64,000 nucleotides of DNA, taken from NCBI RefSeq assembly GCF_988243305.1, contig NZ_OZ547136.1; one strand, given 5' to 3'. Shown here in pieces: positions 62 to 53,156 of this stretch. Both the position numbers and the translations under genes were made by a program. Every line of letters starts with the position of its first letter. The stretch's first letter is position 1. Below the pieces are notes generated by a model. It was not told the origin of the DNA, searched no databases, and worked only from the letters and a program-made list of their open reading frames with translations.

Positions 62-3674
<3,613 letters not shown>

Positions 3675-32556: not shown

Positions 32557-32666
32557 GTTTATTCTCTTTCTGAATATAAAAATGAACCCTCAACGCTTCC
32601 CTCAATGTTTCGGGAGCCATGCGGGTTCAATCATACACGGGAAGCGAGGCGCTTCCCATCACGTTA

Positions 32667-33785
32667 TTATTTTTCAACCTGCTGAACGTCAATTCGACGC
32701 GCTTCGTCCAGCTGACTGGCTTTCGCACGAATGCGCGCTTCCAGCTGGTCGATCATATCGTTGTTGTCCAGACGGTCTTTGCGCACGCCATCTTCATAGA
32801 GGCCGCTTTTCTTGTTACCGCCGGTGACGCCGAGTGTAGAAACCAGCGCCTCACCTGGGCCATTCACCACACAGCCGATAATCGAAACGTCCATCGGAGT
32901 GATGATATCTTCCAGGCGTTGCTCCAGCGCGTTAACCGTACCGATAACATCAAACTCCTGACGCGAACAGGTTGGACAGGCGATGAAGTTGATCCCGCGC
33001 GAACGGATACGCAGCGATTTCAAAATATCGAAACCGACTTTGATCTCTTCGACCGGATCGGCCGCCAGCGATACGCGCAGCGTGTCGCCGATGCCTTCAG
33101 ACAGCAGCAGACCTAAACCAATGGCGGATTTAACCGCCCCGCTGCGCGCACCACCCGCTTCGGTGATCCCCAGATGCAGCGGCTGATCGATCTGTTTTGC
33201 CAGCAAACGATAAGACTCAACAGCGAGGAAGACGTCTGACGCTTTCACGCTGACTTTGAACTGATCGAAGTTCAGGCGATCGAGATGATCAACATGACGC
33301 ATGGCGGATTCCAGCAACGCCTGCGGCGTCGGTTCGCCATACTTTTCTTGCAGATCTTTTTCCAGCGATCCAGCGTTAACGCCAATACGGATCGGAATGT
33401 TTTTATCGCGCGCACAGTCAACCACCATGCGAATACGCTCTTCATTACCGATATTGCCAGGGTTAATACGCAGACAATCGACGCCGTATTCCGCTACTTT
33501 CAGCGCAATGCGATAGTCGAAATGGATGTCAGCCACCAGCGGCACGTTAACCTGCTGTTTGATGAGTTTGAACGCTTCTGCCGCGTCCATCGTCGGTACT
33601 GAGACACGGACGATATCAGCGCCAACACGTTCCAACGCCTTGATTTGATTGACCGTTGCTTCGACGTCTGTCGTGCGCGTATTGGTCATGGACTGTACGG
33701 CGATGGGAGCACCATCGCCAATCGGCACATTCCCAACGTAAATACGTGTTGATTTTCTACGTTGAATTGGAGCCTGGTTATGCAT
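32667..33785 (-). CDS. ispG: 4-hydroxy-3-methylbut-2-en-1-yl diphosphate synthase (IspG/GcpE)
   Basis: 372-aa [39 protein letters not shown] with the C-terminal Fe-S cysteine cluster (ACPTCSRQ...GCVVNGPGE). Confidence 0.97.
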
Positions 33786-44474: not shown

Positions 44475-45320
44475 ATGTCCACGACATGGTTTGTAGGAGC
44501 CGACTGGCTCGCCGAACATATTGATGACCCGGAAATTCAGATTATCGATGCCCGCATGGCGTCGCCTGGACAGGAAGATCGTAACGTTGCTCAGGAGTAT
44601 CTGAATGGACATATTCCCGGCGCAGTGTTTTTTGATATCGAAGCGCTTTCTGATCACACTTCCCCGCTTCCGCACATGCTGCCGCGCCCGGAAACGTTCG
44701 CCGTGGCGATGCGTGAATTAGGCGTTAACCAGGACAAGCACCTGATTGTCTATGACGAAGGTAATCTTTTCTCAGCCCCACGAGCATGGTGGATGCTGCG
44801 CACCTTTGGTGTAGAGAAAGTGTCGATTCTGGGTGGTGGACTTGCAGGCTGGCAGCGCGATGATCTGCTGTTAGAAGAAGGTGCAGTAGAGCTGCCGGAA
44901 GGAGAGTTTAACGCCACGTTTAATCCTGAAGCCGTGGTGAAAGTCACCGATGTGTTATTGGCAAGCCATGAAAATACGGCGCAAATTATTGATGCCCGCC
45001 CGGCTGCACGTTTTAACGCAGAAGTTGATGAACCTCGCCCAGGTTTACGTCGCGGACATATTCCCGGTGCATTGAACGTTCCGTGGACGGAACTGGTGCG
45101 CGAAGGCGAACTAAAAACGACCGATGAACTGGATGCTATATTTTTTGGTCGCGGCGTCAGCTATGACAAACCGATTATCGTCAGCTGCGGCTCTGGTGTA
45201 ACGGCAGCCGTGGTTTTGTTGGCACTCGCGACACTTGATGTGCCAAACGTGAAACTGTACGACGGCGCATGGAGTGAATGGGGCGCACGAGCAGATTTAC
45301 CGGTTGAGCCAGTGAAATAA
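44475..45320 (+). CDS. sseA: 3-mercaptopyruvate sulfurtransferase (tandem rhodanese)
   Basis: 281 aa from the ATG at 44475 (MSTTWFVGADWLAEHIDDPEIQIID), GGAG SD 7 nt upstream; the track ORF 44316.. is an upstream in-frame extension. Active-site Cys in CGSGVTAAVV. Confidence 0.95.
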   Translation: MSTTWFVGADWLAEHIDDPEIQIIDARMASPGQEDRNVAQEYLNGHIPGAVFFDIEALSDHTSPLPHMLPRPETFAVAMRELGVNQDKHLIVYDEGNLFSAPRAWWMLRTFGVEKVSILGGGLAGWQRDDLLLEEGAVELPEGEFNATFNPEAVVKVTDVLLASHENTAQIIDARPAARFNAEVDEPRPGLRRGHIPGALNVPWTELVREGELKTTDELDAIFFGRGVSYDKPIIVSCGSGVTAAVVLLALATLDVPNVKLYDGAWSEWGARADLPVEPVK

Positions 45321-45336
45321 GCTTTATACAGGCAAT

Positions 45337-45366
45337 AAAAAACCGCCGAATTTGGCGGTTTTTTAT
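45337..45366 (+). terminator. Rho-independent terminator downstream of sseA (possibly bidirectional)
   Basis: aaaaaaccgcc gaattt ggcggtttttt: GC stem ccgcc/ggcgg flanked by an A-run and a T-run. Confidence 0.8.
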
Positions 45367-45399
45367 TGCTGGTCTGGTTCGCGGCCTTTCCAGCAGGTT

Positions 45400-45790
45400 G
45401 TATTACCGTAGTAATGCAAGCGCGTCTCAGCGGACACAATACTCGCCAGTAACTCTCTTTTTGTCAAGCGAAAGAGAGTAATCATTGTTTATTTAGCGTA
45501 TTATCGACACCGGCCCTTTCCGCCGTCTCGCAAGCGGGCGCTGGCTCAAGGAAAGGATGTTCCGCGACCGTTAGGGCAAGCGCGTCTCAGCGCTTGCTAT
45601 CGCAGCAATATCGCCAGTGGTGCTGTCGTGATGCGGTCTTCGCATGGACCGCACAATGAAGATACGGTGCTTTTGTATCGTACTTATTGTTTCTGGTGCG
45701 CTGTTAACCGAGGTAAATAATAACCGGAGTCTCTCCGGCAACAATTTATTGGTGGTTAACAACCTTCAGAACAGCAGGTAAGCCCGAATG
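45400..45790. ncRNA. ryfA: possible ryfA-type small RNA locus in the sseA-sseB intergenic region
   Basis: 492-bp non-coding gap between convergent sseA and sseB with a duplicated motif caagcgcgtctcagcg (45416 and 45577). From memory the ryfA sRNA maps between sseA and sseB; boundaries and strand cannot be fixed from sequence alone. Confidence 0.25.
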
Positions 45791-45812
45791 CCGCCCTTTG
45801 GGGCTGCATATT

Positions 45813-46589
45813 TTAGATTATCCGGTTCTGTTTAAAGTCACGCAAAAAACCACCCCAGCGACGTTCATAGAATGGCACAATATGTTCGGTAATAAAGTGG
45901 CTAATTCCTTTTTCCCCTTTTTTCACCTGACAAATATCGATGGGTTCATCGCCAGGTAATGTATCGGTCGCTACACTTCCCGCCGCCTGAATAATTTCTT
46001 CGATATCACCATCGGCTTCAATGCCAATAAGTAAATTAGGCTGTGCCTCTTCGTTCTCTTTAATTGAACAAATAAAAGCACGCTTCACCGGCTTAATAGT
46101 TTTAAATAAGGTGGTGAGTGAATCAATCATTTGTGCTGGTGGCTCTGCGACTTCCGATAATATCAGCGACTCACCGCCCTCCAGTACTTCCTGGCTGCTC
46201 AGCGGATTTCCTTCTTCACCAATCAACAAACTGATTTCACGCGGCATAAATTCTTTACCGGTCGGCAGTTTGGCATTAAGGAAGAGCGTTTCGCCAAGGG
46301 TCATCTCAAACAATGTGCGAACGGGCATTACGACAAATGCCTGTTCGTCTTCAACCGCCTGTTGAAGTGCTTCTAACGAGGTGAAAAAAGGAATGACGCT
46401 GGTGCCGTCTTCTTTTTCCCAGTGCTGTAAATCAAGTGCACTATCTTCAACCACAGCCTCGCCCTGCGCCGCCGTACCAGGCACCCAGACGGTGGATCCC
46501 AGTAGAGTACGGAAAAAGGCCGGGCGGTGCGCCGGTTCGGTTGCTGCTTTTTCCAGCAGATCTTCAAGTTCGTTTTTTGTTTCGGACAT
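45813..46589 (-). CDS. sseB: SseB, enhanced serine sensitivity protein
   Basis: 258 aa from the ATG at 46589 (MSETKNELEDLLEKAATEPAHRPAFFRTLL); the track ORF starts 3 codons upstream. Confidence 0.9.
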   Translation of the reverse strand: MSETKNELEDLLEKAATEPAHRPAFFRTLLGSTVWVPGTAAQGEAVVEDSALDLQHWEKEDGTSVIPFFTSLEALQQAVEDEQAFVVMPVRTLFEMTLGETLFLNAKLPTGKEFMPREISLLIGEEGNPLSSQEVLEGGESLILSEVAEPPAQMIDSLTTLFKTIKPVKRAFICSIKENEEAQPNLLIGIEADGDIEEIIQAAGSVATDTLPGDEPIDICQVKKGEKGISHFITEHIVPFYERRWGGFLRDFKQNRII

Positions 46590-46707: not shown

Positions 46708-47991
46708 TTACGCCGTTAACAGATTAGCAATCGTGCGCACACCAAGTCCCGTAGCACCCGCAGACCACTGTTCAACCGGCGCTTTACGGTAAGTCGCCGA
46801 GCAGTCGATATGCAGCCAGCCTTGCTGATAGTTCTCAACAAAGTGCGACAGGAAGCCCGCCGCCGTGCTCGCGCCTGCCGGGTACGCCGCGCTTCCGGTA
46901 TTGTTCAGTTCGGCAAAGTTAGACGGCAGCTGGCTGCGGTGGAACTCCGCCAGCGGCAGACGCCAGAACGGTTCATTCTCCTGCGCGGCACTCGCCAGCA
47001 AGCGACCGGCAAGCGCATCGTCAAAACTGAACAGCGCGTGATAATCATTACCCAGCGCAGTTTTCGCCGCCCCGGTGAGGGTCGCCGCATCAATGATCAG
47101 TTCCGGTTTCTGCGCACTGGCATCAATCAGGCCATCGGCCAGCACCAAACGCCCTTCCGCATCAGTGTTCATCACTTCAACTTTTTTACCGTTGCGATAG
47201 GTAATAATATCGCCCAGTTTGAACGCGTTGCCGCTGATCAGGTTATCCGCACAGCAGAGGAACAGCTTCACGCGCTTGTTCAGTCCGCGCGTAATGGCAA
47301 ACGCCAGCGCCCCGGTAACCGTTGCCGCGCCGCCCATGTCCGACTTCATCGAGTCCATAAATGCGGTCTGTTTGATACTGTAGCCGCCGGAATCAAAGGT
47401 GATACCTTTACCTACCAGGCACGCGTACACTGGCGCTTCTTTATCGCCAGTCGGGTTGTAATCCAGCGCCAGCAATACCGGAGAACGTTCTGAACCGCGT
47501 CCGACCGTGTGCAGCCCCATATAACCTTGATCACGCAGATCTTCGCCTTTGGTGATCCGGTAAGTCACACGATCGCCCGCGACATTGCTGATCAGATCAA
47601 CAGCACGCTGTGCCAGTTGCGATGGCCCCAGTTCTTCCGCCGGTGCGTTGATGGTGTCACGCACCCAGTCGATGATCATCAGGCGGTTATCCAGTTCCTG
47701 CCGTTGGGCATCGTCCAGATCCGGCCACTCCACTTTACGTGTGCCTTTCGGGGCTTTGTAACCTTGCCAGAATGCCCAGCAGCGATCCGCATCCCAGCCT
47801 TCACCGCTTAACTGAACATGTTTGATGCCCAGACCGTCAATCTTGCGCGCCGCACGCTGGATCAGCCCCAGATCGTCTGCCCCGTTCAAATGCAGGGTAA
47901 TGCCATCATTATTAATGCTGTAAGTCGCTTTTTCTCCCCAGCGCGCGTCGGCAGGTTGGGTAGAGAGGGTAATTTTCATCGCTTCTGTCAT
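46708..47991 (-). CDS. pepB: peptidase B (M17 leucyl aminopeptidase family)
   Basis: 427-aa ORF with M17 catalytic region ([14 protein letters not shown]). Confidence 0.96.
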
Positions 47992-53045: not shown

Positions 53046-53156
53046 TGCTCTATAAACTCCGTACATCACTCAATGCAAGGAACCAGGCTACCGGCTGGAT
53101 GTACGACCGTGTTTACGGAGTGTTAAACACTCCGGCCTGATTCTGAATACTTTTTA

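Follow-up and report, generated by a model that had tools for sequence, protein, structure and literature searches.

The 492-bp gap between sseA and sseB (45321 to 45812 of the window, the whole 64,000-nucleotide stretch of DNA that was analyzed) very probably holds a single intact enterobacterial timPR (ryfA/ryfB) module. In this type I toxin-antitoxin-like locus, timP is read from the plus strand and TimR would be read from the minus strand; we put the probability of this reading at about 0.9. The layout has the architecture of type I systems, with a small hydrophobic toxin ORF accompanied by an antisense RNA gene that acts on the toxin mRNA (antitoxicity predicted). A short sequence that occurs twice in the gap appears to be the TimR/timP base-pairing site, with copy 1 forming part of timR (minus strand) and copy 2 part of SL2 in the timP leader. 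Checking the locus against timPR therefore assigns the duplicated motif a probable function, which the initial annotation had left unstated, that of an antisense seed and its target, and allows the timR gene, which is unannotated by RefSeq and Rfam, to be located from the repeat alone. The timPR locus is already known and published, and we regard this copy as a real but ordinary feature with little significance beyond correct annotation. The publication history of the locus runs from ryfA (2001) and ryfB (2017) to timP/timR (2020) and the RNA switch (2024 to 2026).

The sseA-sseB gap encodes timP

The last base of sseA is 45320, and the stop codon of sseB lies at 45813 to 45815 on the minus strand (ORF list and transferred RefSeq gene models; Table 1), in agreement with the 492-bp non-coding spacing that the initial annotation had given for these convergent genes. 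Its strong sseA terminator was also recovered, as an inverted repeat at 45332 to 45369 that folds well on either strand (−27.3 kcal/mol on the plus strand, −25.6 kcal/mol on the minus strand). Because A and T tracts lie on both sides of the stem and both strands fold, this terminator is bidirectional; it serves sseA on the plus strand and would also serve timR on the opposite strand. A sigma-70 and terminator consensus scan of 45250 to 45900 missed the sseA terminator because its T run was absorbed into the stem.

Table 1. Positions of genes, RNA elements and signals in the sseA-sseB region of the window
Feature	Position	Strand	Remarks
sseA (3-mercaptopyruvate sulfurtransferase) CDS	44475..45320	+	Upstream flank; ORF from ATG 44475, starts MSTTW; 846 nt, equal to RefSeq sseA length
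Bidirectional intrinsic terminator	45332..45369	both	19-nt inverted repeat, 95% complementarity; A-tract and T-tract flank GC stem
Inferred timR (ryfB-type) antisense sRNA gene	45335..45432	-	~100 nt; 5' end ~45431-45433, 3' end in terminator U-tract
Repeat copy 1	45416..45432	-	Predicted to encode TimR 5' seed CGCUGAGACGCGCUUGC; covaries with copy 2 across lineages
Putative timR promoter	45439..45467	-	-35 TTGACA (45467 to 45462), 17-nt spacer, -10 GAGTAT (45444 to 45439); read from sequence
Putative timP -10 TATTAT	45499..45504	+	Followed by GC-rich discriminator; read from sequence; conserved in K-12-type and AST215 loci
timP mRNA (ryfA RNA)	45510..45814	+	Rfam RF00126; ~305 nt
SL1	45516..45555	+	Rfam structure line; pseudoknot site 1 CGCUGGC 45539-45545
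Site 2 GACCGU	45566..45571	+	Complementary to SL4 5' arm (site 4, GCGGUC, 45633-45638)
SL2	45575..45598	+	Hairpin, −17.3 kcal/mol; holds repeat copy 2 45576-45592 (putative TimR target)
SL3	45599..45632	+	Pseudoknot site 3 GCCAGUG 45613-45619; window-private A at 45604
SL4 (GCGGUC...GACCGC)	45633..45652	+	Rfam structure; sequesters Shine-Dalgarno GGA 45646-45648 in 3' arm
timP CDS	45656..45781	+	41 aa: MKIRCFCIVLIVSGALLTEVNNNRSLSGNNLLVVNNLQNSR
timP intrinsic terminator	45788..45814	+	Overlaps sseB stop codon; Rfam non-canonical-pair mark; window-private T at 45805
sseB CDS	45813..46589	-	Downstream convergent flank; RefSeq start MSETKN; 777 nt, equal to RefSeq length

The initial annotation had proposed a ryfA-type sRNA locus in this gap, to be checked by an Rfam search for ryfA and by a search for a short ORF and its antisense RNA. 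The Rfam ryfA family (RF00126) matched 45510 to 45814 on the plus strand at 302.8 bits, far over the gathering score of 80 (E = 3.3 × 10−83), and did so over its full length (model positions 1 to 296 of 296), placing ryfA between sseA and sseB on the strand of sseA. At the equivalent sseA-sseB position of other E. coli genomes, RefSeq annotates a 41-codon timP. The search for a short ORF found one of the TimP family at 45656 to 45781, with an inferred timR on the minus strand. The proposal was thus upheld, and the timP/timR pair that it had placed in Salmonella only is present here; that restriction falls away, since timP is annotated in E. coli too.

The ORF matched the NCBIfam model NF040796 (toxic_TimP) at 84.2 bits (cutoff 45), with residues 1 to 39 aligned to profile positions 1 to 39 of 40. 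Its history was followed in 19 full-length homologues, which comprised E. coli alleles, E. whittamii, Citrobacter, Superficieibacter, Erwinia, Rahnella and Yersinia. Because the ORF begins with ATG and stays intact at 38 to 41 aa in all 19, from Escherichia to Yersinia, with indels of only 3 or 6 nt, its evolution is that of a protein-coding sequence; conservation extends to the N-terminal signal-like segment. Toxicity on overexpression and Sec-dependent membrane localization have been reported only for Salmonella TimP (PMC7667032), and toxicity of the protein encoded here is presumed. Two minus-strand ORFs, at 45363 to 45485 (40 aa) and 45571 to 45762 (63 aa), were considered as coding candidates and dismissed, with no NCBIfam match for either.

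The timP leader retains the elements of the translational switch

All of the timPR RNA elements are present in the window. Upstream of the mRNA, the putative timP -10 lies 5 to 6 nt before the start of the Rfam ryfA match; it was uncalled by the scanner, and no good timP -35 element was recognizable in the sequence. The four-stem-loop leader maps onto the window with one A.C mismatch, in SL3. In Salmonella, SL2 is the experimentally mapped binding site of TimR, the SL1-SL3 pseudoknot is essential, and the roles of this pseudoknot and of the SL4 that sequesters the Shine-Dalgarno sequence (SD) have been described (PMC11228461); a long-range switch between site 2 and site 4 frees the SD (PMC13000454). 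Here, SL2 contains CGCGT, one of the versions of the "variable region" described by Fris et al. (PMC5333039), and repeat copy 2 spans its 5' arm, its loop and 3 nt of its 3' arm. The Shine-Dalgarno GGA lies eight bases before the ATG at 45656.

We then quantified pairing across the 19 homologues. The nested Rfam structure pairs in 96.7% of cells, compared to 38 to 49% in slid registers. The 7-bp SL1-SL3 pseudoknot pairs in every cell (133/133) and covaries, with compensatory changes at 3 of its 7 pairs, and the helix of the timP terminator (helix 14) shows 4 compensatory pairs. All 7 pairs of SL4 are invariant. The hexamers of sites 2 and 4 can form six pairs (−8.2 kcal/mol), and these columns are also invariant, so that covariation is silent on this contact.

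A 17-nt direct repeat marks the putative pairing site

The initial annotation had reported a 16-nt motif present twice, 161 bp apart. The duplication is real, but its dimensions needed correction: the exact direct repeat is 17 nt long (GCAAGCGCGTCTCAGCG, 45416 to 45432 and 45576 to 45592), with copies 160 nt apart from start to start and 143 nt in between. The 16-mer occurs exactly twice in the 64-kb window (45417 and 45577), compared to 0.06 occurrences expected by chance, a count reached in 0 of 100 shuffles. Gapped homology extends beyond the 17-mer (45404 to 45450 versus 45571 to 45619) and reaches the putative timR promoter (CAATACTCGCCAGT versus CAATATCGCCAGT; 0 of 1,000 shuffles). On the two sides, the homology runs into the timR -10 region and the SL3 loop, respectively. 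This suggests an origin of timR through duplication of part of the timP leader.

Read from the minus strand, copy 1 yields the predicted TimR seed CGCUGAGACGCGCUUGC, which is complementary at 17 of 17 positions to the timP leader at 45576 to 45592 (duplex energy of −35.1 kcal/mol). This complementary stretch is followed on the minus strand by an intrinsic terminator (hairpin from 45369 to 45332 with a U-tract; −25.6 kcal/mol). The same order, a complementary upstream sequence and then a terminator, was reported for all species examined in the study that described TimR as the product of a divergent, non-overlapping gene upstream of timP, an RNA that pairs through its 5' end with the timP 5'UTR (PMC7667032).

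Other properties of the minus strand are consistent with a timR gene. We placed its 5' end from the -35/-10 spacing seen in the sequence, which puts it at the first base of copy 1 read backwards. The candidate RNA folds into a free 5' seed, an internal hairpin and the terminator hairpin. Its predicted size (~100 nt) agrees with that of the RyfB transcripts of Shigella, which are likewise ~100 nt and divergent, and are complementary to RyfA across the variable region in versions that include CGCGT (PMC5333039). TimR has been detected by Northern blot in UPEC CFT073 and APEC CH138 (PMC13188913), and Northern or RNA-seq evidence for a ~100-nt transcript extends to Salmonella and S. dysenteriae as well as these two strains (PMC7667032, PMC5333039, PMC13188913). 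The timR transcription start and promoter, and expression of TimR in this strain, are predicted.

The sigma-70 consensus scan of 45250 to 45900 called no promoter on either strand; that of timR went uncalled because its proposed -10, GAGTAT, matches the consensus at only 3 of 6 positions. The -35 TTGACA is conserved in other alleles, and the promoter positions given here rest on sequence reading and conservation rather than on the scanner. Rfam 15 holds no TimR family, leaving the timR side without an independent model match, and a permissive Rfam scan of that side returned sub-threshold matches only (AgrB at 29.8 versus 40 bits, RNAI, IS128 and others). These matches were rejected as driven by the terminator hairpin.

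Energies of long duplexes did not discriminate. RNAduplex gave −76 kcal/mol for the full 101-nt TimR candidate against the full timP RNA, compared to −60 ± 4.7 kcal/mol for shuffled TimR (minimum −75). Because such long unrestricted duplexes are uninformative, we used the exact seed duplex and comparative pair counts instead. A second TimR-timP contact, between CGGCCTTTCC at 45384 and CGGCCCTTTCC at 45511, was considered and discarded as not significant (85 of 1,000 shuffles). By eye, the timR-side block of this pair looked constant in the upstream segments that were read, while the timP side varies within its own SL1 stem.

The two repeat copies change together across lineages

A pattern scan of genome contigs returned at least 120 loci, most of them arising by chance in GC-rich genomes, since the search pattern was a GC hairpin; at least 15 were real homologues, and no Salmonella or Klebsiella locus was among the matches listed. 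We then compared the 435 nt upstream of timP with the first 150 nt of the mRNA for the longest exact direct repeat that they share. This repeat fell at leader positions 66 to 73 in 15 of 22 loci, where it was 10 to 17 nt long with a spacing of 146 to 162 nt; control inverted and downstream repeats in the same 15 loci reached only 6 to 10 nt. The sequence of the repeat differs by lineage. Within E. coli alone we found a CGCGT type (window), a TGTTT type (K-12) and a CACCC type (O157), in each of which the timP and timR sides have changed together. The E. coli versions of the variable region had already been catalogued by Fris et al. (PMC5333039).

The two repeat copies covary. Across 16 distinct concatenated timP-SL2/TimR-5' pairs (20 positions, 320 cells), 96.3% of cells pair, compared to 28 to 47% in slid registers; since the intermolecular register was picked for best complementarity, the paired percentage is somewhat inflated. 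Compensatory double changes occur at 10 of the 20 positions, and 58 cells are doubly changed, compared to 17.2 ± 3.9 in shuffles. An artefact of register choice appears unlikely because position and spacing are constant and because of the slid-register control.

These counts bear on whether the repeat is merely a neutral relic of a partial tandem duplication of the leader, with no functional antisense RNA being made. Homology that continues past the 17-mer into the putative timR promoter is what such an origin predicts. However, a relic should decay independently on each side, whereas the copies change together in at least 9 sequence versions across genera while their flanks diverge. In addition, the minus-strand copy is followed by a terminator, and ~100-nt transcripts of divergent orientation have been documented for Shigella, Salmonella, UPEC and APEC (PMC5333039, PMC7667032, PMC13188913). 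We therefore consider a neutral relic extremely improbable, and retain a seed and its target as the interpretation of the repeat.

A proposed mechanism, and the non-coding role of RyfA

In the model that we propose, the plus strand would produce a ~305-nt timP mRNA in which the structured leader (SL1 to SL4) precedes the 41-codon ORF for the small inner-membrane protein TimP, and the minus strand would produce a ~100-nt TimR that starts at ~45432 and ends at the shared sseA terminator. Copy 1, transcribed backwards, would become the TimR 5' end, a perfect 17-nt complement of copy 2 in SL2. Because the two genes do not overlap, TimR would recognize the timP mRNA only by virtue of the direct repeat carried in the DNA. 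As in Salmonella, translation of timP would require both the SL1-SL3 pseudoknot and a site 2-site 4 contact that releases the SD from SL4 (PMC11228461, PMC13000454). Pairing of TimR would open SL2 and destabilize the pseudoknot, and initiation of timP translation would be blocked, an order of events also taken from the Salmonella work.

The toxin reading would extend to the window by analogy: it is experimentally established only for Salmonella, a limit we draw because the ryfA phenotypes of UPEC and APEC are ORF-independent and timR deletion is of little effect there. E. coli RyfA might instead be mainly a non-coding regulator that acts in stress, fimbriae and virulence; TimR would then serve as a partner or sponge for it, and control of the TimP toxin would be secondary or irrelevant. 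In UPEC, ryfA-deletion phenotypes are complemented by alleles in which the TimP ORF is destroyed (PMC8205139); in APEC, ryfA deletion attenuates, while timR or double deletion is near wild type (PMC13188913); and in Shigella, overproduction of RyfA1 removes ompC mRNA, and no peptide was detected (PMC5333039). Yet the ORF is conserved as coding (intact in 19 homologues, with multiple-of-3 indels and the N-terminal signal-like segment kept) and passes the NCBIfam TimP model, and the leader retains SL4, the pseudoknot and the site 2-4 complementarity, which have no obvious purpose in a purely non-coding RNA. A mainly non-coding RyfA thus seems unlikely to us, although it deserves to be kept in mind. 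The two roles are compatible rather than mutually exclusive, and a timPR module remains our preferred reading of the locus.

The short gap is the common layout, with two private substitutions

The initial annotation had noted that the gap appears shorter than in K-12, and alignment confirmed this: the K-12-type locus has a gap of 817 bp, compared to 492 bp here, a difference of 325 bp. The extra K-12 DNA comprises a second timR-like copy adjoining sseA, the first ~20 nt of a timP transcript, AT-rich DNA and a second terminator. However, the suggestion that the window carries a strain-specific variant or partial deletion was not supported, as all elements of the module are present and the single-module layout predominates among complete E. 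coli genomes. A 161-bp probe from the K-12 insert was found in 1,862 of 5,426 complete E. coli genomes (34%), and about half of the complete genomes match the whole 651 bp taken from the window at an identity of at least 95%. The partial-deletion reading was therefore rejected: nothing is missing here, and it is the K-12 type that has the insert. In K-12, the timR copy next to timP is of the CGCGT type and is mismatched to its own TGTTT-type SL2, while the cognate copy lies 481 nt upstream. K-12 is thus a rearranged form rather than the reference layout, which matters to anyone studying TimR regulation in that strain.

None of the 5,426 complete E. coli genomes carries either of two bases of the window allele, A at 45604 and T at 45805. 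A45604 creates the A.C mismatch in SL3 (−8.3 kcal/mol, compared to −13.5 kcal/mol with G), at the pair 97-120 that is GC in 18 homologous sequences and otherwise in 1. T45805 creates a C.U mismatch in the timP terminator (−12.9 kcal/mol, compared to −19.1 kcal/mol with G). In a Salmonella screen, changes that disrupt stems in SL3 and the terminator caused loss of function (PMC13000454). The window allele may thus be less active through its two private stem-weakening substitutions.

A stronger version of this idea is that the module is decaying or hypomorphic, with the short gap or the private substitutions partly inactivating timPR here. Both substitutions are private among 5,426 genomes and each breaks a base pair, similar stem-breaking changes cause loss of function in Salmonella (PMC13000454), and other species show real collapse of the locus. 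Nevertheless, the locus has lost nothing: both repeat copies, both promoter regions, SL1 to SL4, the sites of the pseudoknot, the ORF and the terminators remain, and most genomes have the short layout. A pair of private changes over 305 nt also lies within the divergence of the strain from its nearest complete genomes (98.0% identity over the gap region and 99.5% in pepB; pepB, at 46708 to 47991, is 99.5% identical to the best of 5,425 complete E. coli genomes, which identifies the window as E. coli). About half of the positions are paired, so two changes in stems are statistically unremarkable, and the stems still fold. Partial inactivation accordingly strikes us as improbable, and an intact module as the better description.

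C. amalonaticus, Y. aleksiciae and Y. similis have cleanly lost the ~160 nt that separate the repeat copies, the junction falling inside the repeat. The lost segment contains both promoters and SL1. Recombination between the repeat copies is the likely cause of these losses.

More speculatively, the CGCGT, TGTTT and CACCC versions of seed and target, which are mutually incompatible, could form a specificity code against cross-talk between modules that share a genome or have recombined, with the window allele as a natural hypomorph on its way to repeat-mediated collapse as in those Citrobacter and Yersinia genomes. We hold this combined proposal to be doubtful; if it were true, the direct repeat that enables timPR would at the same time predispose it to deletion. 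Small leads on the decay of such modules come from the private substitutions in SL3 and the terminator and from the repeat-mediated deletions in other species.

Comparison with known systems

In general design, the locus resembles tisB/istR-1, shoB/ohsC, zorO/orzO and dinQ/agrB, which also combine a small membrane toxin with a trans-encoded divergent antisense RNA. In these systems, as here, a short repeat in the toxin leader gives limited complementarity, and the RBS is structurally sequestered. They have no sequence relationship to timPR, the AgrB score of 29.8 bits (versus 40) resting on the terminator hairpin. Unlike them, timP mRNA requires no nucleolytic processing, and the switch that activates it is purely structural (PMC11228461).

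Closer relatives share the locus itself. The ryfA1/ryfB1 and ryfA2/ryfB2 pairs of Shigella dysenteriae occupy the same sseA-sseB locus (PMC5333039), where the RyfB RNAs are divergent transcripts of ~100 nt with complementarity to RyfA across a five-nucleotide variable region. S. dysenteriae carries two tandem modules, whereas the window carries one, whose CGCGT version is listed among the "ryfA1-like" versions in the Shigella paper (PMC5333039). That paper treated RyfA as a non-coding sRNA and tied its versions to pathotype. The flanking genes and the body of the timP mRNA are shared with E. coli K-12 ryfA, whose TimP is identical at 38 of 41 residues. Unlike the window, however, K-12 has the 817-bp gap and a TGTTT-type SL2, for which the cognate timR-like copy is found 481 nt upstream. 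K-12 also carries a truncated 5' stub of timP accompanied by AT-rich DNA, and its proximal timR copy is non-cognate and of the CGCGT type.

The timP/timR pair of Salmonella enterica (PMC7667032, PMC11228461, PMC13000454) belongs to the same RNA family (RF00126) and encodes a homologous small protein (NF040796). TimP is 38 aa long in Salmonella, compared to 41 aa in E. coli according to RefSeq, or 45 aa if read from an upstream in-frame ATG at 45644. In contrast to Salmonella, the window has no STM2534-like gene between sseA and the module, so timR would end at the sseA terminator; the seed sequence also differs, and toxicity and repression in the window are predicted by analogy. As predicted for the window, timR of Salmonella is divergent and non-overlapping, and the 5' end of its RNA pairs with SL2, a site over 60 nt upstream of the RBS. 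The elements of the Salmonella switch, namely, the SD within SL4, the SL1-SL3 pseudoknot and the site 2-4 complementarity, are all present in the window.

Possible origin and apparent loss of the timR-timP module

Homology between the antisense gene timR and the leader of timP extends beyond the 17-nt direct repeat, with window positions 45437-45450 on the timR side (CAATACTCGCCAGT) homologous to window positions 45607-45619 in the leader (CAATATCGCCAGT; 0 of 1000 shuffles). Because this homology runs past the 17-mer, the loop of leader stem-loop SL3 is homologous to the putative timR -10 region, which suggests that timR originated as a partial duplication of the timP leader. A 10-bp hairpin occupies the DNA between the putative promoters of the divergent genes timR and timP, and its loop contains the proposed timR -35 element, TTGACA.

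The DNA between the repeat copies (∼160 nt) was precisely absent from three loci in other species, with the junction falling within the repeat in each case. The missing segment comprises the timR promoter, the timP promoter, and SL1, leaving a fusion of the timR body to timP that has no promoter. These losses look like recurrent deletion of the module mediated by the repeat. Some E. coli genomes also carried a rearranged locus: in strain P276M (L008), ryfA is truncated and sseB is frameshifted, and in strain F2_81 (L006), sseB is interrupted and an additional timR copy of the CGCGT type lies downstream.

Coordinates of features in the window and in comparison loci
Feature	Location	Strand	Remarks
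10-bp hairpin ACTCTCTTT...AAAGAGAGT	window 45452-45479		between timR and timP promoters
sroE	window 32576-32667	-	Rfam, 116.6 bits, above gathering score
iscRS (iscR stability element)	window 53047-53156	-	Rfam, 131.7 bits, above gathering score
timR-like copies, K-12-type example	L001 (NZ_CP026358.1) 436-530 and 762-856 vs 927-1020		
∼160-nt loss	L085:7900-8190		C. amalonaticus
∼160-nt loss	L121:5280-5560		Y. aleksiciae
∼160-nt loss	L076:4400-4680		Y. similis

The iscRS and sroE matches are both expected in this region of the E. coli chromosome.

Alleles and layouts of the locus in E. coli

The timP mRNA of the window carries two private substitutions, neither of which occurred in any of the 5,426 complete genomes of E. 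coli. In the stem of SL3, A at 45604 creates an A.C mismatch, which shifts the predicted folding energy from -13.5 to -8.3 kcal/mol; in the stem of the timP terminator, T at 45805 creates a C.U mismatch, with a shift from -19.1 to -12.9 kcal/mol. This timP may be a hypomorphic allele, or else the changes may be ordinary polymorphism.

K-12-type genomes (1862 of 5426) contain two timR-like copies. The copy adjoining timP has a CGCGT-type seed, mismatched to the TGTTT-type SL2 of K-12; that SL2 is matched by the distal copy, 481 nt upstream, with a second terminator, an AT-rich stretch, and a truncated 5' stub of timP in between. In a variant longer by 267 bp (L004, strain VE-F10), the seed of the distal timR-like copy (436-530) is a further version, CTGCAAGTGTATCTCGTCTAC, that matches neither the window type nor that of K-12.

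For the timP start codon, RefSeq and cross-genus alignment favor the 41-amino-acid form. A second in-frame ATG lies 12 nt 5' of the annotated start, within the SL4 loop (window 45644-45655), and would yield a 45-amino-acid version, as predicted for uropathogenic E. coli (UPEC) CFT073 (PMC8205139).
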